Assembly (NCBI GenBank): GCA_964626665.1
Contig: CAZVGK010000004.1
Location: 1-64,000 of the forward strand
Direction: 5' to 3'
Source of the DNA: an uncultured Gemmatimonadota bacterium
GTDB taxonomy: Bacteria; SM23-81; DAOVCL01
Length of the DNA: 64,000 nt
This document shows, piece after piece, positions 15,583 to 63,397 of this stretch. The notes under the pieces were generated by a model that did no database searches, was not told the origin of the DNA, and worked only from the letters and a program-made list of their open reading frames with translations. Position 1 is the first letter of the stretch; each line of letters opens with the position of its first letter. The position numbers and the translations under genes were made by a program.

Positions 15583-15597
15583 GCAAAATGTGTGCCA
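15583..15597 (-). promoter_or_regulatory. Sigma-54 (-24/-12) promoter for the EPS operon
   Basis: Minus strand TGGCAC-ACATT-TTGC, a consensus match about 120 nt upstream of the wza-like start. Confidence 0.75.
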
Positions 15598-45516: not shown

Positions 45517-45531
45517 TGGCATACAAGTTGC
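45517..45531 (+). promoter_or_regulatory. Sigma-54 promoter for the giant-protein operon
   Basis: TGGCAT-ACAAG-TTGC about 130 nt upstream of ATG 45660. Confidence 0.7.
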
Positions 45532-45659
45532 AAAGTATGAAAAAGCTCATAGCAGCCAGCAATCAGGGATTTTTCGGTTGTCGGCTGTCAGTTCCTATAG
45601 ACCTTTCCTGATCCCTGGAAACTGACCCCTGGGGACTGTTAATAAATGGGAGATTAGTA

Positions 45660-48600
45660 ATGTTCAAAAGATGGCTATTGCCTTTAACCCTGCTTGTCTG
45701 GTGGTCTTTGGCTCCTTTGGCCATGGCTTATAACCATCTGGAGATAGTAACCTCTGGTGGGGAGAGCGATGAGACCCAGTCTGTTGGTTTTTCAGTGATA
45801 GTCACTGCCAGAAACCCTGACGGCTCCATTGATGCCGGTGCCTATCCCTTAGTCTCCTTCACCTCATCTGATCTTAATGCCTCCCTTCCCCCGAACAGCT
45901 ATCTTTCCGGTGGTCAGGCAACCTTCAACAACCTGGTGCTAAATACCCCCGGAAACCAGACAATTACGGTCAGTGATGTCTATGACCCAACTGTTTTGGA
46001 GGGAACCCTTCCCCTGAATGTCCACCGCTTCGTTGACCGCTTCGACTTTGACATCCCTCATGGGGCAAAGGATGTAGGGTTTCCCTTCCAGACAACCATT
46101 GTGGCCAAGGACAACACCGGAGCCACTAATACCATCTTCTCCGACAATGTGAGCTTAAGCGCTGCCGTGGGGCGGATAAGCCCCAGTTCTGTCCTGGGCT
46201 CCTCCTTTACCAATGGAGAGACCACCCTGATGGTTACCTTATATGGAACGGATCCCACCACCCATATCAATAGTATAACTTGCACCAACGCCATATCCTA
46301 CCCTGGCCAGTCCGAGCTCCCCTCTGGAACAAGCGAGAACATCACCGTCAACCCCGGTTCTTATAGCACTGTGATTCTCCTCTTTCCCGGGGAGGACCTC
46401 ACCCCCGGCACGGCTCCGGGAAAGAGTGGGGAACCAAACCAACAGGTGGCTGGAGTTCCCTTTCCTCAGGTTGAGGTTAAAGCCGTGGATGAATACTGGA
46501 ATCCGGTCTCCTCCCACCCTTATCCTACTATCTCTTTTGGTTCCACCGATACCCTGGCCACCCTTCCCGCAGCTACCTCGATGACCTCCAACAGCGAGAG
46601 CTTCTCTGGCGTGGTTTTGAAGATCGCGGGAAATCAGACGGTCACCGTTGAGGAGGATATAAACTACAATACCAGTGTAAGCACCATTCCCATCATCCAT
46701 TCTTCGGTAGACCATTTCACCTTCGCCCAAATACCCAGTCCCCAGACGACCATTACCCCCTTCAATGTCTCCATTACCGCCAAAGATGCCTTCGAAAACC
46801 GGGTCTATTCATTCAATTCAGACATCGCCTTAGAGTCCTCTACTGGACCTTATACCTATACCCCCACCTTGGTTACCCTATCAAATGGATTTTGGTCGGG
46901 GTTGGTCCATATAACCAAGAAGGCAAACAATGCCCAACTTAGCTGTGACGATCTTGCCGGTCATACAGGATTGAGCAATAACTTTACCATCAATGCAGGC
47001 CCTTTTAGCGAACTATTGATCGTCCTTCCCGGGGAGACCTATACGCCTGGAATTCCACCTGGCCGCAGCAATCCACCCACTCCTGTGCTTACTGGGGAGA
47101 CGGTCACAGCAACTATCCGAGCAGTGGACCAGTACTGGAATCAGGTGGCCGGGCCCTCGGTCCTGGTTCCCATAAGCATTAGCTCTCCCACAGGATATAT
47201 AGAGTCCTTGGATGATGGGGCTCAGCTCACCCAGTTTGGAATTGGTGATTACCGGGTGATCTTCCGCACCTATCAGGGGCAGAGGATCAGGGCGGTCAAC
47301 GGGTTCAACCCCGACATGGACGATTTGAGCAGTGTGATAATCGTCCACTCCGGACCATACTCTAAGCTTGTCCTGGCCGCCCCCGGAGAATCCCTTGATG
47401 CGGGGACCTTTGAACCAGATGGCAAGTCGGGTTCACCGACCACACAGATGGCCGGGAACAAGTTTCAGATCGAGGTGGCGGTCACCGATAGCTACTGGAA
47501 CCCTATAGAGGATCCACCCCCTTATCCTGTGATAGATTTTGCCACAAATGATCCTCAGGCGACCCTGCCCCCAGGCGGAGAGGCAATGGGGAGCCCGGTG
47601 CAGAGTTATCCGGTGACCTTAGCCACGGTGGGGTTAAATTGGCTAAAAGCCACTGACTCCAATGATTCCGACAAGGAGGATCTGGTCAACATCGAGGTCA
47701 CTGCCGGCCCCTTAGACCACTTTAGATTTAGCCAGATATCATCACCCCAACAGGTGGGGCAGCCCATCCACCAGGTGAAGGTTACCGCCAGGGATGGCTT
47801 TGGCAACCAGGTCCTTAGCTTCAACCAGGAGATCAGCCTCCTCTCCTCCACCGGAGAGGGGACATTTACTCCCCTCAGCATTACCCTGACCAACGGGGAG
47901 TGGACTGGGACCGTGACCATCTATCGGGCGGGAACGGGGGTTGAGCTCTCCTGTGAGGATGGGATGGGACATTCTGGAACGAGCAACCCATTTGATGTTT
48001 TGGCTGCCACATACAGCAAGATTCTCATCACCCTACCTGGGCAGGATTATACTCCAGGGGTGGCCCCAGGAAAGAGGGGATCGGCCACATCCACCACTGC
48101 TGGGGTCTCCATACCGGCCATGGTAAGGGCGGTAGATCAGTACTGGAACCTGGTCCCCGCTCAGCCAACTGTGAACCTCTCTACCAGCGGCTATGCGGTG
48201 ATCCCGGGAAACGACAGCAGGCTAAACCCTGATGGGACGAGGGAATTTCAGCTCCTCTTCCGCACAGCGGGGATAAATTCCGTTATAGCCAAGGATGTGA
48301 ATGACACCCTGATTGCGGATACAGGCGCAATCTCCGTCTCCCCGGCAGATTTTGTCCAGATCCAGCTCCTTGCCTCCGGGGAGACCCCTGATCCGGGCAG
48401 TCCTACGGGCAAGGTCGGCTCTATCCTTCCTCAGACGACAGGTATCATCTTCGACTGTGGGGTCAGGGCGGTGGATGAATACTGGAACCTGGTTCCCACG
48501 ATCAATGGAGAACAAATCAGGCTGTCCTCATCTGACAACTCCCTGAATGACAACAATCCGCCAAACCAGGGGCAGTCCTTTGTCAATGGGGAGATAACCT

Positions 48601-51600
48601 TCAGCATCTATTTGGCCCATACCGGGCTAATCTCTGTCACAGCTACTGACTTAGACGATATGAACAAGACCCAGACGGTGGAGATAAATGTCCATCAGGG
48701 AGCCTATTATGAGTTGATCACCCCGAATACAGTCACCGCCGGGCCACCGGCAAGCTTTCCCATGACCGTGAGGCTTATTGACCCCCAGACCGGGGAGCCG
48801 GTCAATGCCTCCCATGGTTTTTTCCTTATTCCCCTTTTGGCCAACCACGACCCCACAGACGGAACTTTGGGAACCACCAGCGGCATCCTGGATAGTGGGG
48901 TGGTGGTAATTGACCACCAGACCTACGACCAGGTGGAGTCCATCTGCATCAGGGTCTGGGATGACTACAGCAGGGAGACCTTTTCCAATACCATCCGGGT
49001 GGTGGCCGGCGATGTCTTCTATCATATATCAGTTCCGGAGGCGGCCACAGTTGGCCCCCCCAAGACCTTCCCGGTGACCGTTGAGCTGAGGGACGCCCAG
49101 ACCGGAAACCCCATCACCACCGAGGATCGGGAGGTGAAGCTTACTATCTACTCGGCCTCGAGTGGGGAACCAGGAACGGGGATAACTGATGTCACTACGA
49201 TCAACCTGATTCAGGGGCGGGCCTCAATTCAGGAAAGTTATACCAAAGCCGAGGATATATATATCGTGGCTACAGATACCTTAGGGGTGAGGGGAACATC
49301 TTCTGTCTTCCCTGTTGATCCAGATGGCTACAAGAAGCTCCAGCTTATAGCCCCAGGGGAGACTTCCCAGCCGGGCTCCATCTCGGAGAGCGGTAAATCG
49401 GGGATACCTGATCCCCAGAAGGCAGGGGTTCCCTTCACGGTTTTAGTAAGGGCTGTGGATCAATATTGGAATTTGGCCGACACAACCCAATCTGGAAGGA
49501 TCCACCTCAGTTCCAGCGACAACTCCCTGAACGAGGAGAATCCCCCCGACCAGGACCAGCCTTTCGTTAATGGGGAGAGGATATTCAACATATTCCTGAG
49601 CAATGCTGGGTTCGTTGAGGTGACCGCCTCTGACAACTCGGATCCGGCCAAGCTCCCCCAGGTGGTGCCCATTGAGGTGAGGGAGGGCCCTCATTATGAG
49701 ATCACCGTCTCTGACACCGCCCTGGCCGGGCCTCCGGCCACTTTCTTCGTGGTGGTCAAACTGATTGACCCCCAAACCGGGGAGCGTGCCTCCTCCTCCA
49801 ACAGTTTCACTATGACCCCATTTCTGGCCAATCATGACCCGGCTCATGGGGTTCTGGGCAGAACCTCAGCTACCCTGAACGACGGATCGGTAACTATAGT
49901 TGATCAGACCTACAACACCGTAGAGGATATTGTGATCAGGATAGATGATGACTACGGACGTCAAGAATATTCTCATCCCATTAGTATTACCTCCGGTGGG
50001 TTCTACTACCAGATCACCGTTCCCGATTCGGCCACAGTTGGTCCCCCCAGCTCGTTTCCGGTGGATATAACCTTAAGGGATGTAAATACCAATGCCGTTG
50101 CCGTTACCGAGAACAGGGAGCTATCGGTGGTCATCTATTCGGCTGAGACCGGCATTCCAGGGACTGGCTCTGTGGGGGTAACCAGGGTCAACCTTGAAAG
50201 GGGGAAGGCAGACTTCCTTCAGACCTACACCAAGGCCGAAGGGGTCTTCATCAGGGTCTCAGACAGCCTGGGCCTATCCGCGGTGAGCTCCGTCTTTTCC
50301 CTGGCCCCCGATAGCTACAAGAAGCTCCAGTTGGTCGCCCCGGGGGAGGCTGCCGAGCCAGGCTCCATCTCCCCCACAGGAAAGAGCGGCCTCCCCCGGG
50401 TAGAGACATCTGAGGTTCCCTTTGTGGTCACCTGCTTGGCGGTTGATCAGTACTGGAACCTAGTGGATGTCAACAACGGGGTTGTCCATATAACCTCATC
50501 GGACAGCTCCCTGGATGGGACCAACCCTCTGAACCAGGATTCCCCATTTACAAACGGGAGAGTGGACTTCGAAATAGTCCTCCATCGCCAGGGACAGATA
50601 AAGGTTACCGTTGAAGACTCAGTCAACTTAGAGAAGACCCCCCAGTCCGTGGATATCCCGGTCAATGCGGCCACTTATGAGATCACCGTTCCCACCACGG
50701 CAGTGGCCGGTCCACCAGCCACATTCCCCATAACCGTCAAGCTGATCAATCCGGCCAGCGGAGGAGTGGTCGGTGCCTCCCACTCATTCATTATCAACCC
50801 ATTTAAGGCAAATCATGACAGCACAGATGGAAATCTCCTGGTAAAAAGTGGGCTTTTGGAGAACGGGATTTCCGTAATCAACGATCAGGCTTACGACAAG
50901 GCTGAGGCCATCTGTATCAGGGTGAGGGACTACTTAGGGCGGGAGGCCTATTCTCCCCCCATAAACATCCAGGCCGGAGGGGTCTACTATGCGGTGGAGG
51001 CGCCGGATACGGCCACGGCAGGGCCGCCGGAGAGGTTTCCGGTTACGGTCAGGCTCTTAGATGCCAATACGGGCAATCTGGTAACCACTCAGGATAGGAG
51101 AGTTTGGCTTCAGGCTTATTCGGCAAGCTCGGGGTTGCCAGGGGATAGCTTAGGGGTGGGGGTGGCCCAACTGGTTGAGGGGAAGGTTACCATCCAGGAG
51201 ACTTATGCAATTGCCGAGCACATTTATATAAAGGTCTGGGACGATGGAGGGTTAGAGGCGGTCAGTCCCCCATTTCTGATCGTTGCCGGAAGGGAGGCCA
51301 GCCTGGTGGTGACGGCAAATCCGGTTATGGAGGGTGGCCAGACGACTTCCCTGGTGGCCACTCTAACCGATGCACAGGGGAACTACATCTCCAATGCCCG
51401 GTTCTCCTTCTCGGTTCTGGAGGGACCGGGAAGCCTTAATTCGTCCTCCGGGGTTACCAATGCACTGGGGCAGGCATCTGTGGAACTGACGGCCTGGCCG
51501 GGTAGCCAGGGGATCATTAGGGTGGAGGTGAGTTCTGATCTGCTTTATAAGCTAACGGAGATTGAGGTCTTGGGTCCACCCCTCACTGAGATGAGTTTTG

Positions 51601-52145
51601 ATGGAATCCATATAGAACTGGGAGAAATCGTTTACATAAAGCCAACTACCCAGATAATCCTCTCCTCCAGCTCTCAGATCGGCCTGGACAGCATCTATTA
51701 TTCCTTAGACGAGGAAGACTGGCAGGTCTATAGGGAGCCCTTCCCCATCGAGGAGGTGGGATCTCACCTGATCCGCTACTATGGGGTGGACATCCACGGA
51801 AACAGGGAAGAGGTTAGAGTAAGCAAAAGGCTCTCCGTGAGCCAGACCTTGCGAGGGAAGGTCAACAACTATCCCAACCCATTTCGGGCGGGGTGCCAGC
51901 CTACCCATATAGAGTATCTCCTGGAGGAGGCCTCCGATGTGACCCTCACCATATATGATCTTCTGGGGGAGGTCGTCTGGAGAAAAGAGTTTAAGGCGGG
52001 AGACCCGGGGGGAGAGGCTGGAGTGAACCTTTTGGAGTGGTGGGGGAAAAATGGAGCGGGAAAGGTTGTGGGCAATGGCGGATATATCTGCCTGATCAAA
52101 TCCAAACGGGAAGAGCTAAAAAGGAAGATAGCGGTGGTTAAATAG
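45660..52145 (+). CDS. 2161-aa secreted repeat (Ig-like) surface protein with T9SS/FlgD-like C-terminal domain
   Basis: Signal peptide; seven PG(E/Q)..PG..GK.G...AVD.YWN repeats; Big_1-like segment; C-terminal NYPNPF...LTIYDLLGEVV...W.GKN..G..VGNGGY...KIAVVK. Confidence 0.85.
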   Translation: MFKRWLLPLTLLVWWSLAPLAMAYNHLEIVTSGGESDETQSVGFSVIVTARNPDGSIDAGAYPLVSFTSSDLNASLPPNSYLSGGQATFNNLVLNTPGNQTITVSDVYDPTVLEGTLPLNVHRFVDRFDFDIPHGAKDVGFPFQTTIVAKDNTGATNTIFSDNVSLSAAVGRISPSSVLGSSFTNGETTLMVTLYGTDPTTHINSITCTNAISYPGQSELPSGTSENITVNPGSYSTVILLFPGEDLTPGTAPGKSGEPNQQVAGVPFPQVEVKAVDEYWNPVSSHPYPTISFGSTDTLATLPAATSMTSNSESFSGVVLKIAGNQTVTVEEDINYNTSVSTIPIIHSSVDHFTFAQIPSPQTTITPFNVSITAKDAFENRVYSFNSDIALESSTGPYTYTPTLVTLSNGFWSGLVHITKKANNAQLSCDDLAGHTGLSNNFTINAGPFSELLIVLPGETYTPGIPPGRSNPPTPVLTGETVTATIRAVDQYWNQVAGPSVLVPISISSPTGYIESLDDGAQLTQFGIGDYRVIFRTYQGQRIRAVNGFNPDMDDLSSVIIVHSGPYSKLVLAAPGESLDAGTFEPDGKSGSPTTQMAGNKFQIEVAVTDSYWNPIEDPPPYPVIDFATNDPQATLPPGGEAMGSPVQSYPVTLATVGLNWLKATDSNDSDKEDLVNIEVTAGPLDHFRFSQISSPQQVGQPIHQVKVTARDGFGNQVLSFNQEISLLSSTGEGTFTPLSITLTNGEWTGTVTIYRAGTGVELSCEDGMGHSGTSNPFDVLAATYSKILITLPGQDYTPGVAPGKRGSATSTTAGVSIPAMVRAVDQYWNLVPAQPTVNLSTSGYAVIPGNDSRLNPDGTREFQLLFRTAGINSVIAKDVNDTLIADTGAISVSPADFVQIQLLASGETPDPGSPTGKVGSILPQTTGIIFDCGVRAVDEYWNLVPTINGEQIRLSSSDNSLNDNNPPNQGQSFVNGEITFSIYLAHTGLISVTATDLDDMNKTQTVEINVHQGAYYELITPNTVTAGPPASFPMTVRLIDPQTGEPVNASHGFFLIPLLANHDPTDGTLGTTSGILDSGVVVIDHQTYDQVESICIRVWDDYSRETFSNTIRVVAGDVFYHISVPEAATVGPPKTFPVTVELRDAQTGNPITTEDREVKLTIYSASSGEPGTGITDVTTINLIQGRASIQESYTKAEDIYIVATDTLGVRGTSSVFPVDPDGYKKLQLIAPGETSQPGSISESGKSGIPDPQKAGVPFTVLVRAVDQYWNLADTTQSGRIHLSSSDNSLNEENPPDQDQPFVNGERIFNIFLSNAGFVEVTASDNSDPAKLPQVVPIEVREGPHYEITVSDTALAGPPATFFVVVKLIDPQTGERASSSNSFTMTPFLANHDPAHGVLGRTSATLNDGSVTIVDQTYNTVEDIVIRIDDDYGRQEYSHPISITSGGFYYQITVPDSATVGPPSSFPVDITLRDVNTNAVAVTENRELSVVIYSAETGIPGTGSVGVTRVNLERGKADFLQTYTKAEGVFIRVSDSLGLSAVSSVFSLAPDSYKKLQLVAPGEAAEPGSISPTGKSGLPRVETSEVPFVVTCLAVDQYWNLVDVNNGVVHITSSDSSLDGTNPLNQDSPFTNGRVDFEIVLHRQGQIKVTVEDSVNLEKTPQSVDIPVNAATYEITVPTTAVAGPPATFPITVKLINPASGGVVGASHSFIINPFKANHDSTDGNLLVKSGLLENGISVINDQAYDKAEAICIRVRDYLGREAYSPPINIQAGGVYYAVEAPDTATAGPPERFPVTVRLLDANTGNLVTTQDRRVWLQAYSASSGLPGDSLGVGVAQLVEGKVTIQETYAIAEHIYIKVWDDGGLEAVSPPFLIVAGREASLVVTANPVMEGGQTTSLVATLTDAQGNYISNARFSFSVLEGPGSLNSSSGVTNALGQASVELTAWPGSQGIIRVEVSSDLLYKLTEIEVLGPPLTEMSFDGIHIELGEIVYIKPTTQIILSSSSQIGLDSIYYSLDEEDWQVYREPFPIEEVGSHLIRYYGVDIHGNREEVRVSKRLSVSQTLRGKVNNYPNPFRAGCQPTHIEYLLEEASDVTLTIYDLLGEVVWRKEFKAGDPGGEAGVNLLEWWGKNGAGKVVGNGGYICLIKSKREELKRKIAVVK

Positions 52146-52170
52146 TCGAAGTAGAAGCTTAGGAACACGA

Positions 52171-52564: not shown

Positions 52565-52673
52565 GATTCGTGCTATTTGCATATTCGTGGGATTCGTGTT
52601 CAAGGCCTTATTTATATAAACCCTAAATTAACCGTATAAAGCCGTTTGGACGGCCTAAACCAAATAGGTGAAA

Positions 52674-53924: not shown

Positions 53925-53926
53925 AG

Positions 53927-56917
53927 ATGAAACTAAAGATCGTTGGAGTTTGTGTTGTCTTCCTCTTGATGCTTTTGGGCCCGGGGAGAGGATGGGCCAA
54001 GCCCATCCCCAGCGAAGAGGATCTTTTCCTCTCTGCTTCCCAGAAATACAGGGAGGAGGAGGACAAGACCCAAGCCTTGAGACAATATTGGCTCTTCTTG
54101 CAGAGCTATGCGAGGAGCAGCTATGCCCCTCCTGCCCAATATATGGTGGCCGAATGTCTCTTTCAGAAAGGGGATTATCAGAGGGCTATCCGGGAGTATA
54201 AGCGGGCAAGGGGTTATCCCTCCAAGGACGAATTTGCCTCAACGAGTATCCTCCTGAGGATGGGTGAGACCTATTTTAATCTAAAGGAATATGGTCACGC
54301 CCTGAACTGCTTTAACCGTCTGATTAAAAATCATTCGAAGTCATTCCTGGTGCCTGAGGCCCTCTACGGGAAGGTGGAATGTCAGATTCAAATGGGGAAA
54401 TGGGAGAAGGCCGAAAAATCCCTGCAAAAGCTGGTTCAATTGAGACCTTCCTACAAGAAAATAGCCAAAATCAGCTTCTTGAAAGGTCTATTACTCTATC
54501 ACCAGGAGAGATATGAGGAAGCCCTCAAGTCCTTCGAATTGGTCCCCGAGGACCGAGGGATCTACTATTGCGGCCGCTGCCTGGAGAACTTTGGGGAGTT
54601 CCTCCCTGCTGTGCAGAAATACAAAACGGTTCTGGACCAATTCCCCCGGAGCGATCTGGCGGACAATGCCTCCTACTCCATCGGGGAGTCCTTCTGGAAG
54701 GCGGGACAGTTCTCCTTGGCCACCGAGTCCTTGCAGCGGATGATCGACCAATATCCCCACAGTCCCTTTGCCCCTTATGCCTATTACCTCTTGGCCTGCG
54801 TTCTCTATCAGTCGGGGAGCCACGAAAAGGCCATAGATCTGCTCTATCCTCTGCCCCAGAAATATCCCCAGAGCCCAGCCATCCCTTTTGTGCAGTATCT
54901 CATTGGAAATAGCTTTTTGGCCCTGAACAGATTGGATGATGCCATCTTTGGCTACACAAAAGTGGCTAAGTCCTCTCCCGACGAAGAGGTTGCCGCTGCT
55001 GCCCAACACAAGATAAGCTGGTGCCAGGGGAAGAAGGGGGAGTTCGTCAAGCTTATCATGTCGGCGGAGGAGTTTACCAGGAGGTTTGGAGGGGATAAGC
55101 TCGCCGGCCGGGTGAACCTCCTCAGGGGAACCTCCTATCTCAAGCTAAGGAGGTTCAAGGAGGCCATAAAGACCTTTGGGAGCATTCTGGACAAATACCC
55201 GGGCACAGAGCTGGCCGAAAAGGCACTCTATCTTTCTATTATGTCCTACTACCTGCAGGGGAACTATGAGAGGCTGGTAACCAACTACAGGTATCTGACC
55301 GACAACCTCTCCCCCTCATCCAGCCCCTGGCGGGCGTTGACCTATTTCTATCTGGGTGAGGCCTATTATCACTTAGGGCTGTGGAAGAAGGCCGAGAGGA
55401 TGTATAGGTTGGTGGTGGAAACCTATCCTCAAAACCCCCTGGCACCATACGCGGTTCAAGGGGTAACAGCCTGCTTTTCTCAGAGAGGAGAGTATGGGCT
55501 GGCCCTCCAGGAGCAGAAGAGGCTCCTGAGCCAGATAGCGGATCAGGATGTCTTGAAGGGCAGTGATCAACTGACCATAGCGGGTATCTACTTCAACCAG
55601 AGGGAGTATGAGAAAGCCCTGAGGCTCTTGGAGGATTTTGTTTCCCATAACCCCAAATCTCCCCAGGTCCCTTCTGCCCTCTTTCAGCTCGGGAGCTGTT
55701 ACTACAGGCTGCGTTACTATCAGCAGGCGGTTGAGAGCTGGAAGAGGCTCATTGATCAACACCCTGATGATCCACAGGTTCCTGAGGCCATCTTCAAGAT
55801 TGCCCAGACCCAATTTGGGCTTCAGGATTACGGCTCTGCCCTTCTCACCTATGGGGAGATCCTGAAGAGAGGGGGAGAAAAAGCCAAGGAGGCCCTCTTC
55901 CAGACCGCCAACTGTTATTACAATATGAAGCTAACTCAGAAGGCAATCGATGCCTACCAGAAGTATATAGACCAATATCCCGATGCTCCCCAGGCAGGCG
56001 CTGCCTTGGAGGGAATTCAGCTATGCTATTATCGGTCGGGTAAGAGCTTAACGGATTTGATCAAGAAATATCCGGGGAGCAAACTTGCCGCTGATGCCTA
56101 CTGGCAGAAGGGGAAGGGGGCTTTTGCCCGAGGAGACTACTCCACCGCCAAGACCTTTTTCCAGAAGGTGGTCTTGAACTTTCCTTTGAGCAAGTCAGCT
56201 CCCCCCAGCCTCTTCTATATGGGGGAATGCCACTATAAGCTAAAAGAATATGACCGAGCAGTGGTCTGTTACCGCAACTTCGTCTCCACCTATCCCCAGG
56301 ACAACCTCAGCCCCCAGGCTAAGTTCAAACTGGGAAATGTGCTCTTCAAACTAAATAAATATAGGGAGAGCATAAAAGTCTACCGGGAGATAGCCGAGAC
56401 GATTGACGATACAGTCTTTGCTCCTGCCTCCCAGTATAATATTGCCCTCTGCTACAAGAAGCTGGCTGGGTGGGGGGATCTGATAAAGGCCTATGAGAGG
56501 TTTGTTCAAAAGTACCCCTGGAGCCCAAAGAGGGACTTCGTCCTGATGGATTTAGGGCTTATCTACCAGCAGAAGCTTAAAGACTACCAAAAGGCAATCG
56601 TCGCCTATCAAAAGGTCCAGCCGGGGGGGGAGGTTAGTTACTCCGAGCTCCATTTCAAATTAGCCGAATGTTACGATAAGTTGGAGAAGGGGGAGGAGGC
56701 CGTCCAGGAATACAAGAGGGTGGCCTCGACGAAACCCACAGCGGATTCATATAGGTTGGCCGCTCTGGCCAGGTTGGGCCAGAAGTATGAGGATCAAGCC
56801 AGATGGAAGGATGCCATAGCCATTTACCAGGATATCCTCTTCAGTGGGGGAAGGAGGGAATGGGTGGAGGCGGCCAGGGAGAGGATTGAGCAAATAAAGA
56901 AGTTGGACAGATTGTAA
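53927..56917 (+). CDS. Large periplasmic TPR protein (BamD/CpoB-type repeats)
   Basis: Signal peptide; many YP.S..A..A.(Y/F)..G repeats over 996 aa. Confidence 0.85.
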   Translation: MKLKIVGVCVVFLLMLLGPGRGWAKPIPSEEDLFLSASQKYREEEDKTQALRQYWLFLQSYARSSYAPPAQYMVAECLFQKGDYQRAIREYKRARGYPSKDEFASTSILLRMGETYFNLKEYGHALNCFNRLIKNHSKSFLVPEALYGKVECQIQMGKWEKAEKSLQKLVQLRPSYKKIAKISFLKGLLLYHQERYEEALKSFELVPEDRGIYYCGRCLENFGEFLPAVQKYKTVLDQFPRSDLADNASYSIGESFWKAGQFSLATESLQRMIDQYPHSPFAPYAYYLLACVLYQSGSHEKAIDLLYPLPQKYPQSPAIPFVQYLIGNSFLALNRLDDAIFGYTKVAKSSPDEEVAAAAQHKISWCQGKKGEFVKLIMSAEEFTRRFGGDKLAGRVNLLRGTSYLKLRRFKEAIKTFGSILDKYPGTELAEKALYLSIMSYYLQGNYERLVTNYRYLTDNLSPSSSPWRALTYFYLGEAYYHLGLWKKAERMYRLVVETYPQNPLAPYAVQGVTACFSQRGEYGLALQEQKRLLSQIADQDVLKGSDQLTIAGIYFNQREYEKALRLLEDFVSHNPKSPQVPSALFQLGSCYYRLRYYQQAVESWKRLIDQHPDDPQVPEAIFKIAQTQFGLQDYGSALLTYGEILKRGGEKAKEALFQTANCYYNMKLTQKAIDAYQKYIDQYPDAPQAGAALEGIQLCYYRSGKSLTDLIKKYPGSKLAADAYWQKGKGAFARGDYSTAKTFFQKVVLNFPLSKSAPPSLFYMGECHYKLKEYDRAVVCYRNFVSTYPQDNLSPQAKFKLGNVLFKLNKYRESIKVYREIAETIDDTVFAPASQYNIALCYKKLAGWGDLIKAYERFVQKYPWSPKRDFVLMDLGLIYQQKLKDYQKAIVAYQKVQPGGEVSYSELHFKLAECYDKLEKGEEAVQEYKRVASTKPTADSYRLAALARLGQKYEDQARWKDAIAIYQDILFSGGRREWVEAARERIEQIKKLDRL

Positions 56918-56955
56918 GTGAGCTAATGACAAGATCCAATCTGAGGGAGGATAGG

Positions 56956-57570
56956 ATGAAGAGGCCTGGTATAATTGTCCTGCCGATTCTATTTTTGAGT
57001 ATTCTGCTGGGATGTAGTCGAGAGGATGCAGTCTCCATCCCAGATGTATCGCCGAAGATGTTGTTGCCCCAATTGGGTGGGTTGGGATTCAAACTCCAGG
57101 AGGCCAATGAGATAGATCATTCTGCATTGTTTAATCTGGCCAAAGATGTGGCCAGTCAGTTTGGCATTCCCGTCTCCCAGCGAGATTTGGATAAGATAGA
57201 TTTCCCCCGGCGAATGGCCATAGGAAAATATAGAGATGAGGCGGGGACGATTACTATAAAGATCTCTCAATTTGAGGATGGAACTACTGCTTATAAGGAG
57301 CTGAAGTCCCACTTAGATAAAGTTAAGGAGCTGGAACGTCTTCTCCGAAGAAGCAAGAGCGTCATAGGTGGAAAACCTGAGAGAATAAGGGTAAACGGTC
57401 AGAAGGCTTATTGGCTTGAATATCTGATGAGACCCAGTAATGTTGGGCTGAGGTATGAATTCCGGCTTATCTGGGCAAATGGGCCTTATCTCTTTGAGGT
57501 TAACTCTTATGGAGAAGAGCCTCGGATGATTGCAGAGGCCGTAGAGATAGCGGGGGAGATTGGACTTTGA
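56956..57570 (+). CDS. Lipoprotein of unknown function
   Basis: Lipobox ILLGC after a hydrophobic stretch; ATG after GGGAGGA. Confidence 0.65.
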   Translation: MKRPGIIVLPILFLSILLGCSREDAVSIPDVSPKMLLPQLGGLGFKLQEANEIDHSALFNLAKDVASQFGIPVSQRDLDKIDFPRRMAIGKYRDEAGTITIKISQFEDGTTAYKELKSHLDKVKELERLLRRSKSVIGGKPERIRVNGQKAYWLEYLMRPSNVGLRYEFRLIWANGPYLFEVNSYGEEPRMIAEAVEIAGEIGL

Positions 57571-57899
57571 ACTCACGGCTAATATATTGACACTCAACCT
57601 CACAATTGTTCACTACTGAGCCCCACAGTGCGGCAAAGCCGTAAAAAAACAAGGGCCACAGATTACACTGACTCTTAGGAACACGAATGACATGAATAGA
57701 TCCAGAATCGAGGTGGCAGAACCCCGATTCTGCCACCATCCTTCTGCCGTCAGAATCGGGGTTCTGACGGCTCGGGAATTTCTATTTTCCGTTTTTCTAC
57801 CCGGCTTTAACCGGTTTGGAATGCTGTGACTCCTGTCACAGCATGCGTCAACAGGAGTTACCACACTCCATAGTGACCTGCACTAAAGTGCGGTGGAAG

Positions 57900-58025
57900 T
57901 TGGAGATTGCTTCGGCTTGCCGCCTCGCTGCCGCTGGGGCAAGCCTCGCAATGACAGACAGGGGGGACCCGTCATTGCGAGGAGCACTTCGCTATTGCTC
58001 AGCACAGGCTCCGCGACGAAGCAAT
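57900..58025. repeat. GTCATTGCGAG...GAAGCAAT palindromic repeat family
   Basis: GAGATTGCTTCG...CTCGCAATGACA and GTCATTGCGAGG...CGAAGCAAT; another copy at about 62123-62217. Confidence 0.65.
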
Positions 58026-58232
58026 TTTGTTCTACCCGGTTTTAGCTGAAGGTTTCCCCAGAGGGTGGCAGAAGCCCTCTTCTGCTACCAAAAAGAGAAA
58101 GATCAAAAAACGGTAACAATTCACGGGATCAGTCTCCAGGGATCAGGGAGTCAGATGCTCTTTCATTCTTCATTTTACATTCGAAGCTTCCCTGACCTCG
58201 TGGGCTGTTAAACCAAACGAAAGGAGAGGAAG

Positions 58233-58871
58233 ATGTTTGAAGGAGTTCAAATTCTTGATCTCTTCAGGGAAAGCCCCATAATGTCCGTTCTCCTGGTCTG
58301 TTCCATTATTGCCTTCACCTTTGCTATAGAGAGGTGGTGGTTTTTCAGGAGGAACAGGATCAATGTGCCGAAGTTTATGGAAAGGGCAAAGGAATTTCTC
58401 AGGAGAAACGAGCTGGATCATCTCTTTGGCTACTGTGAGACCAAGAGGGGACCAGTTCCCAGGATGATCCACACAGCTTTGAGCAACTTGAGCCTATCTA
58501 AGGAGGAGATGGAGCAACTCTTGGATACGACAAAGGAGAAGGAGGAGGTGAAATTCGAGAAAAATCTCTCCATTTTAGGGACCCTGAGCAACATCGCCCC
58601 TCTTCTTGGGCTCTTCGGCACGGTCTTGGGGATTATCAGGGCCTTTCGCGATATAGCGGTTACCGGTTCAGGGGGCTCGGCAGTGGTGGCTATGGGTGTA
58701 GCCGAGGCACTTCTTACCACGGCAGCCGGGATAATTATCGCTGTCGTCTCCACCATCTTTTACAACTATTTTATGCGCCGCATCAGGGTGATGGATGTGG
58801 AGACAGAAGATGTGAGAGTAAACCTCTGGAGGATGTTGAGGGAGGCAAACGGCAACAATGTTCAAAGATAG
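58233..58871 (+). CDS. MotA/TolQ/ExbB proton channel protein
   Basis: IAPLLGLFGTVLGIIRAF, GVAEALLTTAAG. Confidence 0.95.
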   Translation: MFEGVQILDLFRESPIMSVLLVCSIIAFTFAIERWWFFRRNRINVPKFMERAKEFLRRNELDHLFGYCETKRGPVPRMIHTALSNLSLSKEEMEQLLDTTKEKEEVKFEKNLSILGTLSNIAPLLGLFGTVLGIIRAFRDIAVTGSGGSAVVAMGVAEALLTTAAGIIIAVVSTIFYNYFMRRIRVMDVETEDVRVNLWRMLREANGNNVQR

Positions 58872-59283
58872 GTCCATCGTTTCCATAAACATCACCCCTT
58901 TGGCCGACGTGACCATGACTCTGATCGTTATCTTCCTCATCACTATGCCCTACATTATGTGGTCGGGGATTAAAGTCAACTCCACCAGGGCAGTGAAAGA
59001 CAAAAGGATCGTTAAGGCAGCAAAGGAGCCTGAGCCCATAGTGCTTGTTCTCACGGCCAAGGAGGTCTATTTAAACAGGGAACGGGTAAAGAAAAAGAGG
59101 GATCTCGAGCTCCTTTTACGAGGGCTTCTCAAGGAGAGGGCTGACAAACAGGTCATCATCGTCCCAGATGGGGATGTTCTCTTAGGAAGGGTGGTGGAGG
59201 TTCTGGACATAGCTAAACAGAGTGGGGCAGCAAAACTGGCCCTCTTAAAGAGAAGAGAAGGGAGGTTAGCTCTGAGCCAATGA
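58858..59283 (+). CDS. ExbD/TolR protein
   Basis: INITPLADV TM Asp motif; VVEVLDIAK.SG. Confidence 0.9.
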   Translation: MFKDRSIVSINITPLADVTMTLIVIFLITMPYIMWSGIKVNSTRAVKDKRIVKAAKEPEPIVLVLTAKEVYLNRERVKKKRDLELLLRGLLKERADKQVIIVPDGDVLLGRVVEVLDIAKQSGAAKLALLKRREGRLALSQ

Positions 59284-59684
59284 GGGAAGACAAGATTAGG
59301 TCACATATAGATGTATCGCCGGTGATAAATGTCTCCCTGGTGATTGTCCTAACGCTGATGATCATCTCCCCCTTTCTCGGTGAATCCAAGGTAAAGGTAA
59401 AACTACCCCAGGCTACGACAAGTGAGGTAAAAGACCAGGAGAAAGTGGAGATCACCTACTCGGTGGAGGGAGAGCTCGCCGTGGGGGAGGAGATTGTGAC
59501 CTTAGCTCAACTGCCCCATGTGCTTAAAGAGAGGTTTCAGACCAATCCAGGACAGATGGCGGTGATAAAGGCAGACGAGAGAGTCAGATATGAGAAGGTG
59601 GAGAAGATCATAGCTATAGCCAGGGAGTGCGGCGCAGAAAGAATAGCAATAGCCACCGAGCAGAAAAAGGGGAAGGGAAAGTGA
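59280..59684 (+). CDS. Second ExbD/TolR protein (TM Asp replaced by Asn)
   Basis: IDVSPVINVSLVIV, VKLPQA, IKADE.V.Y, IAIAT. Confidence 0.88.
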   Translation: MREDKIRSHIDVSPVINVSLVIVLTLMIISPFLGESKVKVKLPQATTSEVKDQEKVEITYSVEGELAVGEEIVTLAQLPHVLKERFQTNPGQMAVIKADERVRYEKVEKIIAIARECGAERIAIATEQKKGKGK

Positions 59685-60853
59685 ACATTGGCTCTACAAA
59701 AAAGGAGACCAGAAGGTCCTTTTTTATCTCAGTAACTTTGCATCTGGCTGCCCTCCTTCTTTTGATCTTTAATGGGGGGACCAAACAGAGATCTATGGGT
59801 TCAAAGCTTACCGAGGTATCCTTCATAGAGAGGTATGGGCCGGATGTGGCCAGCAAGATAGTGAGAAGGAGGATCCCCATCCGCACTCACAGCCTATTGA
59901 AGAAGATATTTCCCTCCCAGAAGAAGGGAGATAAGTCCGCCGGGGTGAGAGAAAGGTCACGCCCCTCGGGTCACCAGGGGAGAAGCAAGCCAATCGGTAA
60001 AAGCATAATTGCCTCCCACACCAAAAAGGTGGAGGATCTAATAGATGTTGACCAGGATGTGAGGGTAAGCAGTCAACCAAGGAAGAGATCGACAATTGCC
60101 CAGGGGAAACTGGTGGGAAGAAAAGCGGAGGTTAATCTTAGAGACCTCCCATTTGAGGTAGAGGAGGATCTGCCGAAGCTAGAGAGCGCAGATATAGAGA
60201 TGGCAGTGAAGATTCCGGTAGGCGGATTAGAGTCAGGAAACAAGCGCTTTGTGGGGGGGATATTGACCAAAGGGGAAAAGGGTCTGGAGGAGCCGGTTAT
60301 CTTTCCTCTGGCAAGTTCAGGGGATCTGGTCGACATTTCAGATGGTGGCGGAGGTGGGGGACGGGGTACTCTTTTGAACTATGGGGAAACGGGTTCTGCG
60401 GGAGGGGGTGGAAATCCTACGGGAAGGAGAGGAAATTCGGAAGTGATAATCCCAAAAGCCAAGAGATTGAAGATGCTGAGCGAAGAGGTTGATGCCCAGG
60501 TAGTTGTTAAATCACAGAGGGAAGAGAGAGGAGGAAACCTCAAGTCTGGCCGAGGGGTGACGATGAGACTGTCTGGACCACTTTCGGGCAGAAAGATCTT
60601 AAGGTCCTTTGCCCCAGAGTATCCGGAATGGGCGAGGAGGAAGGGGATAGAGGGAAGAGTAGATCTCCACCTAACGGTGAATCCGAATGGGTTTGTCAAG
60701 GATAATGTCTGGGTGGAAAGAACCTCCGGACAAACTGGCCTTGACCGGGTGGCCATTGATGCCGTAAAGAGATGGGTATTTGCCCCTCTGCCTTCGGACG
60801 TGGCTCAAATAGAGCAGTGGGGAATAATTACCATCTTCTTCAGGTTGGAATAA
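59681..60853 (+). CDS. TonB family energy transducer
   Basis: N-terminal TM SVTLHL (S-x-x-L-H); C-terminal PEYPEWARRKGIEGRV...LDRVAIDAVKRWVFAP; GTG start overlaps the exbD stop. Confidence 0.88.
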   Translation: MNIGSTKKETRRSFFISVTLHLAALLLLIFNGGTKQRSMGSKLTEVSFIERYGPDVASKIVRRRIPIRTHSLLKKIFPSQKKGDKSAGVRERSRPSGHQGRSKPIGKSIIASHTKKVEDLIDVDQDVRVSSQPRKRSTIAQGKLVGRKAEVNLRDLPFEVEEDLPKLESADIEMAVKIPVGGLESGNKRFVGGILTKGEKGLEEPVIFPLASSGDLVDISDGGGGGGRGTLLNYGETGSAGGGGNPTGRRGNSEVIIPKAKRLKMLSEEVDAQVVVKSQREERGGNLKSGRGVTMRLSGPLSGRKILRSFAPEYPEWARRKGIEGRVDLHLTVNPNGFVKDNVWVERTSGQTGLDRVAIDAVKRWVFAPLPSDVAQIEQWGIITIFFRLE

Positions 60854-61151
60854 ATATCAAGTCCACCACGGACTAGCACAGCGCGGAAAAGCCGCAACCA
60901 AACAATTCACCGCAAAGTCGCAAAGGACGCAAAGCCTACCACGGAACCTCACGGATAAACAATAGCCACAGATTACACAGATTTCACTGATAATGAAAAA
61001 GATACTTGAGATTTCAGGCGTTCACCTGGTATATACCGCAATTTACATTCAAACCTTTGTTTTCTCTGCGCCTACTTTGCGAGCTTTGCGGTTAAAAAAC
61101 TTTACCCAAAAAACAAGATCTTGCAAAATTGTAGTTAAGGGGGAAAATAAA

Positions 61152-62054
61152 ATGCGAAATTTACTCTCTTATCTTATCTCGCTTTTCTTTATTTTTTTCT
61201 CTGTGGCTCCCAATTGGGCCGAAGAGGGAACGGGTGATGTCTCCCTCCCGGATGTGGTGGTGAAAGCCAAGAGCAAGGAGAAAACAAAGATAGAGAAGGC
61301 TGAATCCCCTCTCTCGGTGGAGACCTACATCATAGATGAGGCCAAATCCCCTCTCGATGCCCAGATTTTGGAGATATCCCCGGTGCAGAGTGTTGAGGTC
61401 TACCTAAAGGACATCCCCCCTCTAACCACTGAACAGACTATTCACCCCTGGTTGCCCCCCATAGTAGCTCAACCAGTGGTGGTCTTCTTCCCTCAGGAAA
61501 AGGAAGGGATGATCGAATGGGAGCTGGTGATCACCGATTATCAGGGGGAGGAGGTAAAGAAGTTCAACGGCAAGGGCAGGCCTCCAGATAGGATAGAGTG
61601 GGATGGGGTAGACCGCAATTACCGAACCCTAAAGGTAGGGTTCCCCTATTCCTATGTATATACCGCAGTTGATGTGGGGACCAACTCCCATACCTATGTA
61701 GGGGAGCCTTTCAAGGTAAACGCATTTAAGTATCCCAGAGAGCACGACCTTGTAGTGGACATCGTCAACGCCAAGCTCTTTGGGGAAGAGGGCCTTAATT
61801 TAAGCAGAGATGGCAGCTTCCTTATGGGGAAAGTCGCCGATCTGGCCAGATCTTATCCCAACTCCCCAATTTCGGTCACAGTCTATAGCCAGGGCGCCTC
61901 CCTGGCCCAGAAGAAGGCAGATGTGCTGGCTGATTATCTCTCCCAGGACCTGATCATCTCCCCGGAAGGGATTAAGAGGGTGGGCAAGAAGCCAACTGGC
62001 CCCGGCATCGATCCTGGCGGCTATACGCAGATCGTCATCTCCCATGCCAGGTAA
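61152..62054 (+). CDS. Exported protein with FlgD-Ig-like domain and degenerate OmpA-like C-terminal domain
   Basis: Signal peptide; WELVITDYQG..VKKF.G.G.PP..IEWDG; C-terminal LAQKKADVLADYL...I...G. Confidence 0.65.
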   Translation: MRNLLSYLISLFFIFFSVAPNWAEEGTGDVSLPDVVVKAKSKEKTKIEKAESPLSVETYIIDEAKSPLDAQILEISPVQSVEVYLKDIPPLTTEQTIHPWLPPIVAQPVVVFFPQEKEGMIEWELVITDYQGEEVKKFNGKGRPPDRIEWDGVDRNYRTLKVGFPYSYVYTAVDVGTNSHTYVGEPFKVNAFKYPREHDLVVDIVNAKLFGEEGLNLSRDGSFLMGKVADLARSYPNSPISVTVYSQGASLAQKKADVLADYLSQDLIISPEGIKRVGKKPTGPGIDPGGYTQIVISHAR

Positions 62055-62443
62055 AGACTCAACTCTTAGTTATATTCTCCTTGCTTGTTGAGGATGTTAT
62101 CATCCTCAACAGAGGTTCCTTCTGTCATTGCGAGCCCCGTTAGATATCAATGACGTTTCGCTGAACTCCGAGATTGGTAGAAATTATCTAACGGGGCGAG
62201 CGAAGCGAAGCAATCTCATAGGTGTTCAACGGAGGCTTATTGGATTCTTGAGGGATGATAACATCCCTCAAGAGCCGGGCGACAAAAGTTTTTGTGCTCG
62301 ATTTCATATCGGGCGGAAAGAGACGCCCCATCTAAAATGGGGCGCTACCGTTTATCATCGTAAGGAAAGGAGGTTTTGAATGTAACAAGCAAAGAGATGT
62401 TTTTTTGTCCAATAACTAACCCATAGAAAGAAGAGGAGGCACG

Positions 62444-63331
62444 ATGAAGAGGTTACCCTTGTTTCTTTCTCTAATAGTCCTTTTTGCCCTGACGGGCTGC
62501 AGTAAGAAGAGTACAAATTCTGAGCAAACAGATGAGGGAACCATCCGGGAGTTTATCTTTGACTCGGACTGGTTTAAACTCACTAACCACTTTGAGGGTG
62601 AAGCGGTCAGCGACTCTGGGGATACGAGCACAACGGCGGGCAAAGTCCTCTGTGACACCCTCACCGTACTCTGGGGAAGGAAGATCACCGATCATCCTGA
62701 TCCCCAGGTGACCATCGAGATCACGGGAGATTCGGCCTTCGTCTCCTGGACGATAAACACAGTGGGCTGGTTTCACATTATCAAATGGGTATCATCAGAT
62801 AGTAGTCATTGGGTGCACATCAAGAAGCCCCTGAGCGAGACGGCCAATCTTTATGCCATATTCAAGAGAAGGGGTGAGGTCAATCTTCCCCATCGAGGAT
62901 GGGAGTTGAACAAGATCTCCGGGGCTGAGGGAACATCGGACTCGGTGTGCACGGTAGAGATTCTAAGCATTAATATCCAAAGCAGTAGCTATGATACCAC
63001 CATCACCAATCCCCTGGAGCTGTTTGACATAACAGATGTGCTCACCTTTGAGACCGGAGAGGAGGTCAAAATTACGGTGGAGACCACCGGTGAGCCCGCC
63101 AAGCTCTTCCTTCATGTCTTCACCCACCTCTGGCCCTGGCATTTTAGGATACCCTTTCAAAAAGAGGAGGGTGGAACCTTTATCGGCACCTGGAAGGTGC
63201 AGAGGATACCGGCAGTCAAGTTCGCCGTCTTTGATCTGCTGCGACACGAGACCATCTACGACGACAGCTACCCCTACGACTCCAACGGCTGGCTCTTCCC
63301 TTACTTGGTAAAATCAACCGTGAGCAACTAA
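62444..63331 (+). CDS. Lipoprotein of unknown function
   Basis: Lipobox LTGC, RBS GAGGAGG, 295-aa ORF. Confidence 0.75.
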   Translation: MKRLPLFLSLIVLFALTGCSKKSTNSEQTDEGTIREFIFDSDWFKLTNHFEGEAVSDSGDTSTTAGKVLCDTLTVLWGRKITDHPDPQVTIEITGDSAFVSWTINTVGWFHIIKWVSSDSSHWVHIKKPLSETANLYAIFKRRGEVNLPHRGWELNKISGAEGTSDSVCTVEILSINIQSSSYDTTITNPLELFDITDVLTFETGEEVKITVETTGEPAKLFLHVFTHLWPWHFRIPFQKEEGGTFIGTWKVQRIPAVKFAVFDLLRHETIYDDSYPYDSNGWLFPYLVKSTVSN

Positions 63332-63363
63332 TCTTGCTCATTCAGGATTTTCTCATCCTGAAC

Positions 63364-63397
63364 AAGGGAGGGCCGGGTAGCCCCGGCCCTCCCTTTA
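63364..63397 (+). terminator. Intrinsic terminator
   Basis: AAGGGAGGGCCGGG-TAGC-CCCGGCCCTCCCTT followed by TAT. Confidence 0.7.

Follow-up and report, generated by a model that had tools for sequence, protein, structure and literature searches.

A stretch of 64,000 nucleotides from an uncultured Gemmatimonadota bacterium (positions 1 to 64,000 of contig CAZVGK010000004.1, assembly GCA_964626665.1; GTDB lineage Bacteria; SM23-81; DAOVCL01), hereafter the window, carries an operon whose eight core genes (45660-62054) are one inherited accessory unit, kept in order and gained or lost together. The genes encode, in this order, a giant surface protein of immunoglobulin-like (Ig) repeats that ends in a type IX secretion system (T9SS)-type C-terminal domain (CTD), referred to here as the cargo, an outer-membrane barrel of the PorV/PorQ family, a tetratricopeptide repeat (TPR) protein, one ExbB, two ExbDs, a TonB-like transducer and a last protein with an Ig and an OmpA-like domain. 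We give about an even chance to the proposal that these proteins make up an accessory envelope-spanning machine, in which an anchor complex resembling PorE-PorP-cargo is coupled to a private motor of the Ton/Agl type that pulls the loaded barrel. No description of the eight-gene set was found in searches of full-text literature, with supplements outside their scope, and in a full-text search pairing candidate-phylum names with T9SS terms, none of the papers listed contained both.

The window makes up the first 64 kb of contig C4, which is 154.6 kb long and belongs to a genome of 3.17 Mb and 63 contigs that is 99.65% complete (G000). A contig that shares 88-95% protein identity with it bears the label Candidatus Zixiibacteriota. 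A first-pass annotation had seen a co-directional cluster at this place, and all ten of its open reading frames (ORFs) were indeed found on the plus strand, from 45660 to 63331. For comparison, G001 and G002 belong to the same genus and G006 to the same GTDB phylum, which is represented by seven genomes including that of the window. The control G013 is labelled Saprospiraceae (Bacteroidota), G014 is labelled Cytophagia, and G015 belongs to Ignavibacteriales. Domains were called with the curated cut-offs of Pfam and NCBIfam, and structures were compared using AlphaFold models, Foldseek and VIA-align.

We surveyed the gene order with two anchors, the resulting locus sets of which overlap, several loci lying on the same contigs. 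An alignment of four barrel orthologues, searched against species-representative genomes, gave 68 loci, in 15 of which the orthologue is of full length, with a score of 200 bits or more. The TPR gene comes next in 15/15. In 14 of the 15 it is followed by ExbB, one or two ExbDs, TonB and the last gene to the extent that the contig allows; in the fifteenth, the contig breaks off within the TPR gene. In the remaining 53 loci, where the PorV-family genes are generic ones of at most 136 bits or no match was confirmed, the flanks contain no ExbB, ExbD or TonB gene. The second search was anchored on the last gene with a nine-row alignment of subtype B (described below), by which subtype A, that of the window, cannot be found. 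Relatives occurred in 118 species genomes, and 80 loci were kept, 77 of them newly fetched. Wherever at least 7.6 kb of upstream sequence was present (42 loci), barrel, TPR, ExbB, ExbD, ExbD and TonB genes preceded the last gene in this order, and a cargo-like gene stood before the barrel, each in 42/42; the shorter loci contained no violation of the order. In both surveys, the TPR gene always directly follows the barrel. Downstream of the last gene nothing is conserved, the best gene cluster being present in 9 of 43 loci. The Ton genes are thus syntenic with barrel and cargo, and the earlier idea of a dedicated module was supported.

Presence and absence of the genes followed the same lines. 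Within the phylum, a third ExbB, the last gene and a full-length, 420-aa barrel orthologue co-occur in three of the seven genomes (G000, G002 and G006), and the remaining four lack all three, while two other ExbB loci are kept in every one of the seven. The genome of G001, which is of the same genus and 97% complete, has no orthologue of barrel, last gene or third ExbB. Here a homologue of window positions 45386-45536 is followed, after about 150 nt, by a homologue of 62398-63337, and the order then runs 295-aa lipoprotein homologue, 676-aa CTD protein, pilM. On account of this junction, we regard window positions 45537-62397 as a single block of approximately 16.9 kb that was gained or lost whole.

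The ExbB of the operon belongs to an operon-specific lineage apart from the housekeeping ExbBs. G000 has four MotA/ExbB loci, namely flagellar MotAB, two other ExbB-ExbD(-ExbD)-TonB sets, and that of the operon. In a quick maximum-likelihood tree, a single branch (Shimodaira-Hasegawa-like approximate likelihood ratio test, SH-aLRT, 99) splits 65 operon-linked ExbBs from 10 housekeeping ones; the tree covers operon-linked ExbBs and the housekeeping ExbBs of this phylum, and warnings about long branches apply to it. The ExbBs of the window and of locus L033 (Krumholzibacteriota) form a long-branched pair, designated type A, that is sister to the other 63, type B. Type A was met in this analysis only in G000, its genus-mate G002 and L033. 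G002 carries both subtypes (G002:C141, L029, and G002:C156/C56, L026), a type A set that is 88-95% identical to that of the window and a type B set like that of G006.

These results bear on the alternative that a cargo-barrel pair and a housekeeping Ton system, each a module of its own and unrelated to the other, happen to stand side by side. Cargo-barrel pairs without Ton genes do occur elsewhere in G000 (on contigs C29, C1 and C5), as this explanation would have it. The synteny counts nevertheless contradict chance juxtaposition, the parts being found all together or not at all among the genomes of the phylum, the block having come or gone whole within one genus, and the ExbB being of a lineage distinct from those at the two ubiquitous loci. 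We consider this explanation to have next to no probability.

The four motor genes were assigned as follows. ExbB matched PF01618 (MotA_ExbB) with 104.1 bits, ExbD1 and ExbD2 matched PF02472 with 73.7 and 82.6 bits, respectively, and the TonB-like protein matched PF03544 (TonB_C) at residues 330-407 with 58.3 bits, all over the Pfam cut-offs. The equivalog models were missed for both the Ton system (exbB, 87.2 bits, cut-off 206.2; best ExbD, 48.4, cut-off 216; TonB PRK10819, 20.5, cut-off 448) and the Tol system (tolQ, 115.2, cut-off 221; tolR, 55 and 63.4, cut-off 127.3; tolA_full, 27.8, cut-off 59.45). The TonB-like protein consists of one N-terminal membrane helix, a long linker of low complexity and the TonB_C domain. 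Its helix contains S-x3-H, the motif of the TonB membrane helix, and there is no variation among 11 orthologues at S35, H39, Y332 or in the C-terminal core. ExbD1 has the transmembrane Asp, within TPL(A/I)DV, in 11/11 aligned orthologues. The conservation of this Asp, of S-x3-H and of the TonB_C core points to a competent motor. At the corresponding site of ExbD2, Asn is present in the window and in L033, and Asp in the nine other aligned orthologues. We considered the Asn of ExbD2 as a feature of the family and rejected it, as it was found only in type A.

The cargo contains internal repeats of about 330 aa and matches Big_1 (33.7 bits) and an OmpL47-type domain (47 bits, cut-off 40). Its C-terminus scored just below the cut-offs of both FlgD_ig (26.7 bits, cut-off 27) and Por_Secre_tail (18.7 bits, cut-off 23), in agreement with the giant CTD-bearing repeat protein that had been described from the sequence. 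Orthologues of the cargo carry Big_1 and BatD-like domains together with FlgD_ig matches that pass the cut-off (31.9 and 30.7 bits). A comparison with the sequences of the PDB gave no match, and domain and PDB searches revealed no recognisable binding or enzyme domain beyond the Ig folds in the cargo or its orthologues. With tblastn, the CTD of the cargo matched 46 other places in G000, which makes 47 CTD-like sequences in total.

The barrel, first annotated as PorV/PorQ-like, passes the NCBIfam model PorV_fam (125.1 bits, cut-off 90) and stays below the equivalogs PorQ (82.7 bits, cut-off 220), PorV (37.5, cut-off 250) and PorV2 (56.7, cut-off 325). Its model, with a predicted local distance difference test (pLDDT) score of 81.5, found as top Foldseek match the PorV of F. 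johnsoniae in the SprA complex (8gl6_F; E 1.5e-11; target TM-score, TMt, 0.59), and also matched the PorV chain 6h3i_F (TMt 0.63). The next-nearest folds were the FadL/TodX/TbuX transporters. The barrel has an additional Ig domain as a tail at about residues 300-400 (FlgD_ig at 331-384, 25.6 bits), and this tail and the Ig domain of the last protein are homologues (39% over 44 aa, E 4e-8). Because a barrel with an even number of strands has its two termini on the inner side, the tail should be periplasmic. Elsewhere in G000, other PorV-family genes lie directly after genes with CTD-like ends (G000:C29:16850-18328, C1:56783-57926 and C5:81577-87387), so that cargo-barrel gene pairs recur in this genome; some of these PorV-family genes are fused to extra C-terminal parts (frames of 661 and 760 aa).

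The kinship of the barrel with transporters raised the possibility of energized uptake, in which the cargo would capture a ligand and the FadL/PorV-type barrel would import it with energy from TonB, as a small-barrel counterpart of SusCD/RagAB. The hallmark of uptake systems, a full ExbB-ExbD-TonB set whose TonB_C domain is intact, is present, and the operon resembles the classical TonB system in its ExbB, ExbD, TonB_C and S-x3-H. It differs in that no Plug-type TonB-dependent receptor is present in or near it. One was found neither in the conserved operon nor in the window, the adjoining 18 kb on its downstream side or the rest of contig C4, and the suggestion that a cognate receptor might lie just outside the window was not supported; the nine Plug matches of G000 are all on other contigs. 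Furthermore, the barrel exceeds the PorV_fam cut-off with PorV carrying a bound CTD substrate as its best structural match, the cargo lacks a recognisable ligand-binding or catalytic domain, and no gene for a periplasmic binding protein or an inner-membrane transporter is a conserved neighbour. A need for TonB is not known for FadL-type transport. Uptake thus appears very unlikely to us.

The TPR protein begins with a signal peptide without a lipobox Cys and is covered by TPR matches from residue 39 to 967, among which YbgF-type repeats sum to 333 bits in 10 stretches. It remained below the models for PorW/SprE (145.7 bits, cut-off 250), PorE (62.3, cut-off 600) and GltC (28, cut-off 450). With these matches and those of the motor genes, the 996-aa TPR protein, the ExbB, the two ExbDs and the TonB of the first-pass annotation were all recovered.

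The last protein, which had been described as FlgD/OmpA-like, had no Pfam or NCBIfam match at threshold, including Pfam OmpA, and has no lipobox. In its model (pLDDT 70.6), a disordered N-terminal third is followed by an Ig domain and then by an OmpA/MotB-like domain, which agrees with the description. The OmpA-like fold was identified by both Foldseek (6jfw_A, E 1.5e-6) and VIA-align (4b62_A, Z 14.7, root-mean-square deviation 2.0 over 109 aligned residues). The start of the gene, on the other hand, had to be revised: the first 53 codons of the ORF are a dispersed repeat and the signal peptide begins at Met54, so that the true start is probably 61152 and not 60993. The N-terminus contains a block of about 45 residues that is strongly conserved yet predicted to be disordered; its pattern, '..T.F.slTvEGEDRvhvefeRP.L.ldLDP..apGLd', was matched as a regular expression in 60 of 77 last-gene orthologues. 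In the orthologue alignment, the OmpA-like part has no invariant Asp or Arg and is without conserved peptidoglycan-binding residues. A protein homologue search with the last protein returned only seven close relatives. The last-gene profile also matches many proteins of 800-4000 aa in which this Ig domain recurs 7-23 times, and some of these multi-Ig relatives end in an Ig and an OmpA-like part.

Given a motor of the Tol kind together with a TPR protein that recalls CpoB and a last protein that recalls Pal, the operon might be regarded as a tether of the Tol-Pal kind that holds the outer membrane, cargo and barrel being merely stabilized by it. The best matches of ExbB and the ExbDs among the equivalogs were indeed TolQ and TolR (115, 55 and 63 bits), that of the TPR protein was YbgF/CpoB (333 bits), the last protein has an OmpA/Pal-like fold, and like Tol-Pal the operon contains no receptor. 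The N-terminus of TolB binds TolA, and the disordered N-terminal block of the last protein could act in the same manner. In addition, G000 contains only three Pfam OmpA matches and no TolB over the cut-off (the highest score, 94.7 bits against 343.15, came from long, unrelated frames on other contigs or far along C4). Against this, the Tol scores are far under the equivalog cut-offs, and that of 90.1 bits was passed only by the summed TPR repeats. The operon has two TolR-like genes but no TolB, as had been noted before, and the conserved peptidoglycan-binding residues are missing from its Pal-like member. It is also accessory, being absent in four of the seven genomes of the phylum including the 97%-complete one of the same genus, unlike a housekeeping envelope system, and was never seen without cargo and barrel in the last-gene survey. 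We therefore hold a tether of this kind to be distinctly unlikely.

We then examined the T9SS of the organism outside the operon. SprA is encoded in G000:C18 (1930-aa frame, 746.2 bits summed, cut-off 200), and only housekeeping genes were found when its neighbourhood was searched for a motor. SprA was present in 16/16 genomes searched, among them 9/9 that bear the operon. PorU is encoded in G000:C5 (743.8 bits summed, cut-off 420), where it adjoins a PorV-family gene, and was over the cut-off in 5/5 genomes searched. PorV_fam has 14 matches in G000, nine of them over the cut-off, and each genome of the phylum has 10-17 PorV-family matches. Together with the number of CTDs, these results indicate that a T9SS-type outer-membrane apparatus with many substrates exists apart from the operon.

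The usual motor of this apparatus was not detected. GldL and GldM had no match in G000-G012, while the Bacteroidota control G013 gave 254.6 bits for GldM and 132.2 bits for GldL. GldK was over the cut-off only in G013 (575 bits; the best score in G000 was 22 bits), with GldN/PorN not searched for, and PorW/SprE likewise only in G013, the best score of the genome search in G000 being 87.4 bits on C42. The frame concerned (G000:C42:13845-15644, 672 aa) combines this sub-threshold PorW/SprE-like TPR part with a C-terminal TonB_C domain, and is thus a TPR-TonB_C fusion. A search of the genome for sprA and porKLM, as had been recommended, accordingly found the former and none of the latter, and a complete canonical PorLM T9SS as the explanation of export was not detected.

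Within the cluster itself, SprA, GldK, GldL and GldM are all missing, as had been stated at the outset. The first-pass annotation had nevertheless taken the cluster for an export system of its own, a variant or an ancestral form of T9SS. This was not supported: the operon contains no translocon and is accessory, and is therefore neither a secretion system in its own right nor a general T9SS motor, SprA and PorU being encoded elsewhere and SprA also occurring in the four genomes of the phylum that lack the operon.

The proposal that we favour starts from this setting. Extraction of carrier and substrate from SprA requires energy, which is supplied by GldLM in Bacteroidota, and release depends on the TPR protein SprE (PMC10994853, in excerpt). 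Taking into account that this step is costly, that GldLM powers it in Bacteroidota and that GldLM is apparently absent here, we propose that the private motor may free the barrel from SprA. The giant Ig-repeat cargo would cross the outer membrane via the ordinary SprA translocon of the genome and would remain bound by its CTD to the private PorV/PorQ-type barrel, in parallel to SprB on SprF and PG1035 on PorP. The Ig tail of the barrel, the 996-aa TPR protein and the Ig/OmpA-like protein would form a PorE-like periplasmic platform below the barrel. The ExbB-ExbD-ExbD complex would turn proton flow into force, and the TonB-like protein would transmit this force across the periplasm to the platform, so that the loaded barrel is pulled. 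The likeliest job of such a motor would be to extract the barrel with its cargo from SprA and to position it at the surface; a possible second use would be to keep pulling, so that the adhesin is tensioned or moved. A candidate handle is the conserved block at the N-terminus of the last protein. When residues 24-110 of the last protein were paired in prediction with residues 305-408 of the TonB-like protein, the score was 0.00 (mark 0.32, controls not run), which speaks neither for nor against binding.

Two known systems suggested the outline of this proposal. In Bacteroidota, PorE, with domains from TPR to OmpA_C, forms a complex with the PorP barrel and the cargo PG1035, and SprB and SprF are a comparable pair (PMC9143113, in excerpt). 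As in the operon, the CTD surface protein of these systems is encoded beside its own 14-strand barrel of the FadL family (excerpts of PMC9143113 and PMC12618676), and in the operon, too, the cargo is thought to stay on the barrel. The PorE-type partner unites TPR, beta-sandwich and OmpA_C-like parts in one protein (PMC9143113, in excerpt), while the operon spreads them over the TPR protein, the Ig tail of the barrel and the last protein. Unlike the PorP/SprF systems, the operon has a barrel of the PorV/PorQ family with an Ig tail, a CTD resembling those of type A, and no beta-propeller; unlike PorE-PorP-PG1035, its OmpA-like domain is without conserved binding residues, and a full ExbB-ExbD-ExbD-TonB set lies inside it. 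The second system is GldLM/PorLM, an inner-membrane motor that is driven by protons, belongs with ExbBD and MotAB in the wider sense, spans the periplasm and has a TPR partner, and whose energy also moves adhesins in its own system (PMC10994853, in excerpt). The transducer of the operon is TonB-like and not GldM-like, and its motor, in contrast to GldLM/PorLM, is accessory and private to one cargo. None of the named families was reached at the equivalog level.

A possibility close to this proposal is a motor for surface motility or adhesion, in which a Ton-type motor continuously propels or tensions the barrel-adhesin, as in the Agl-Glt machine of Myxococcus or in SprB driven by GldLM. The core complex of Agl-Glt follows the same plan, with one TolQ-like, two TolR-like and one TonB-like protein and secreted TPR proteins in one operon, and the full machine adds outer-membrane barrels and an adhesin, as the operon does (PMC3169522, in excerpt). 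The model of the AgmX/PglI tail gives a weak match to the TonB-like protein (24.5 bits, cut-off 40), the cargo is long, built of Ig repeats and adhesin-like, and mobile adhesins have been proposed to sit on PorP-like barrels (PMC9143113, in excerpt). However, the GltC equivalog is far from reached, Pfam finds no FHA domain in the TonB-like protein, unlike in GltG, and the core complex is insufficient for motility; in Gammaproteobacteria and Fibrobacter, its relatives form an operon whose function is unknown (PMC3169522, in excerpt). The outer parts of our operon are of the T9SS type, not GltA/B/H/K and CglB, and the resemblance is one of gene content. The OmpA-like partner is associated with non-mobile cargo (PMC9143113, in excerpt), no track or ring proteins were found (GldK in the control only), and the organism already encodes flagellar MotAB/FliL/FliM and the type IV pilus genes pilMNOPQ. 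A motility or adhesion motor is, in our estimation, unlikely.

Several observations weigh against the pulling machine that we propose. Every contact, topology and work step in it we infer from gene linkage and analogy, and gene linkage only is what suggests that the motor supplies energy to barrel and cargo. In the ExbD2 of the window, the transmembrane Asp is replaced by Asn, and the CTD of the window's cargo is sub-threshold in the curated models. Anchoring to the wall by the last protein is doubtful because of the missing invariant Asp and Arg and the missing Pfam OmpA match. The four genomes of the phylum without the operon possess SprA and 10-17 PorV-family matches all the same. Within G000, the 46 other CTD-like matches and at least eight other PorV-family genes over the cut-off have no such motor; if the motor is for release from the translocon, it serves this cargo only, and something else serves the rest. 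Moreover, the SprA-bearing G014 and G015 also gave no GldL or GldM match, and as the models are built on Bacteroidota, very divergent GldL, GldM and GldK could be missed. Finally, all 80 carriers listed in the last-gene survey are metagenome-assembled genomes, and some of their phylum labels are doubtful.

By label, the 80 carrier records comprise 37 Eisenbacteria, 11 Krumholzibacteriota/-ia, 6 Latescibacterota, 2 UBP1 and 1 Zixibacteria, with 14 unnamed and 9 from other phyla. These last nine look out of place and are probably errors of labelling or binning, and for this reason the labels were not used as an independent count of phyla. Among 24 listed DNA runs, 19 contain at least 0.90 of the words sampled from window positions 52668-61200. 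All 19 are labelled salt marsh metagenome (2019), and may represent one campaign that includes the source sample, so they are not independent.

The features of the operon and its edges are listed in Table 1. Concerning the two lipoproteins that had been counted in the cluster, both have lipobox-like N-termini and neither matches a family at threshold. A homologue of the 214-aa lipoprotein was found only in L026 (94% identity), that is, only in the genus of the window, and this gene is therefore not part of the conserved core. The 295-aa lipoprotein was considered as a core part and rejected, as it is not conserved and sits in the flank kept by G001. In the flank (62444-63331, and L022:1797-3827 and L022:3894-8353, at 63796-70352 of contig C4), this lipoprotein is accompanied by a CarboxypepD_reg protein of 676 aa that bears a T9SS CTD, and next come type IV pilus genes in the order pilM-pilN-like-...-pilQ.

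Table 1. Coordinates in the window of the operon genes, the block and its edges
Feature	Position	Strand	Basis or remark
Sigma-54-type -24/-12 box, TGGCAT-N5-TTGCA	45517..45532	+	127 nt upstream of cargo start
Present/absent block, ~16.9 kb: eight core genes and 214-aa lipoprotein	45537..62397	+	Comparison with G001
Cargo, 2161 aa, secreted Ig-repeat surface protein with C-terminal T9SS-type beta-sandwich	45660..52145	+	
PorV/PorQ-family (FadL-type) outer-membrane barrel, 418 aa, extra C-terminal Ig	52668..53924	+	PorV_fam
TPR protein, 996 aa, presumed periplasmic scaffold	53927..56917	+	TPR matches
Lipoprotein, 214 aa, no known family	56926..57570	+	Lipobox; inside block, not core
ExbB/TolQ-type proton-channel subunit, 212 aa	58233..58871	+	MotA_ExbB
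ExbD/TolR-type subunit 1, 141 aa	58858..59283	+	ExbD
ExbD/TolR-type subunit 2, 134 aa	59280..59684	+	ExbD
TonB-like transducer, 408 aa as listed, start uncertain	59627..60853	+	TonB_C at 330-407
Last core gene, 300 aa from probable start (ORF from 60993, 353 aa)	61152..62054	+	Model, signal peptide
Second lipoprotein, 295 aa, no family	62444..63331	+	Lipobox-like N-terminus; flank

The sigma-54-type box that had been placed before the cluster is real, the window containing two matches where 0.08 are expected, but belongs to the conserved flank and not to the block. In G001, the sequence at the homologous site is TGGCACACAAGTTGC, with the 295-aa lipoprotein's homologue directly after it. Near the cargo start of the orthologous loci, the strict pattern was found in 0/10, and a looser one, TGGCAY-N5-YTGC, in four of the ten (5/11 with the window). 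On the basis of this comparison and these counts, the box was not included in the block. An NtrC-type sigma-54 activator is encoded at 19117-20499 of the window. The second box (15582-15597, minus strand) stands before a Wza-like polysaccharide export gene (region 14523-20499) and is divergent from two GAF histidine kinases and this activator.

The gaps between the genes (52146-52667, 57571-58232, 60854-61151 and 62055-62443), as well as 45088-45659, consist largely of short dispersed repeats, as had been recognized, each giving 17-253 blastn hits in the genome, spread over 13 to 49 contigs. In the operons of other genomes, genes are tightly spaced or overlapping. The gap between cargo and barrel is only about 30 nt in the genus-mate locus L026, indicating that the repeat found there in the window was inserted. 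The G+C content of the block is 0.517 against 0.489 for the genome, and since 10.9% of 17-kb windows reach an equally high value, the composition is not anomalous and gives no sign of foreign origin. Elsewhere in the window are an IS110-family transposase and two small ORFs for retropepsin-like aspartyl proteases (20781-21560, 38496-38939 and 41668-42069), and the region of 38-45.6 kb is richer in A+T, with short ORFs and repeats only.

The known periplasm-spanning proton motors are Ton, Tol-Pal, Agl-Glt, GldLM and the flagellar stators, and each new output device has been instructive as to how bacteria perform work at an outer membrane without an energy supply of its own. In the operon described here, a complete Ton-type motor is locked to parts for which T9SS is otherwise the only known setting, namely a barrel that acts as carrier, a CTD-bearing cargo and a putative platform like that of PorE, and the carriers are uncultured phyla of the FCB (Fibrobacteres, Chlorobi and Bacteroidetes) group without the usual T9SS motor in detectable form. 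If the link is functional, it would bear on what powers SprA-type secretion outside Bacteroidota, and on whether TonB-like proteins pull barrels other than Plug-type receptors. We tentatively raise a wider possibility, about which we are more doubtful than confident: a TonB-family transducer may act on a PorV/FadL-type carrier barrel, lineages with SprA, PorU and PorV and without GldLM may use Ton-type motors as the energy chain of T9SS, and the operon may be a private copy for one giant adhesin. The eight-gene system is compact and makes clear predictions for structure prediction, pull-downs and reconstitution. If the wider possibility is true, the operon would represent a new class of TonB-dependent outer-membrane machine, one that releases or moves a surface protein rather than importing a nutrient.

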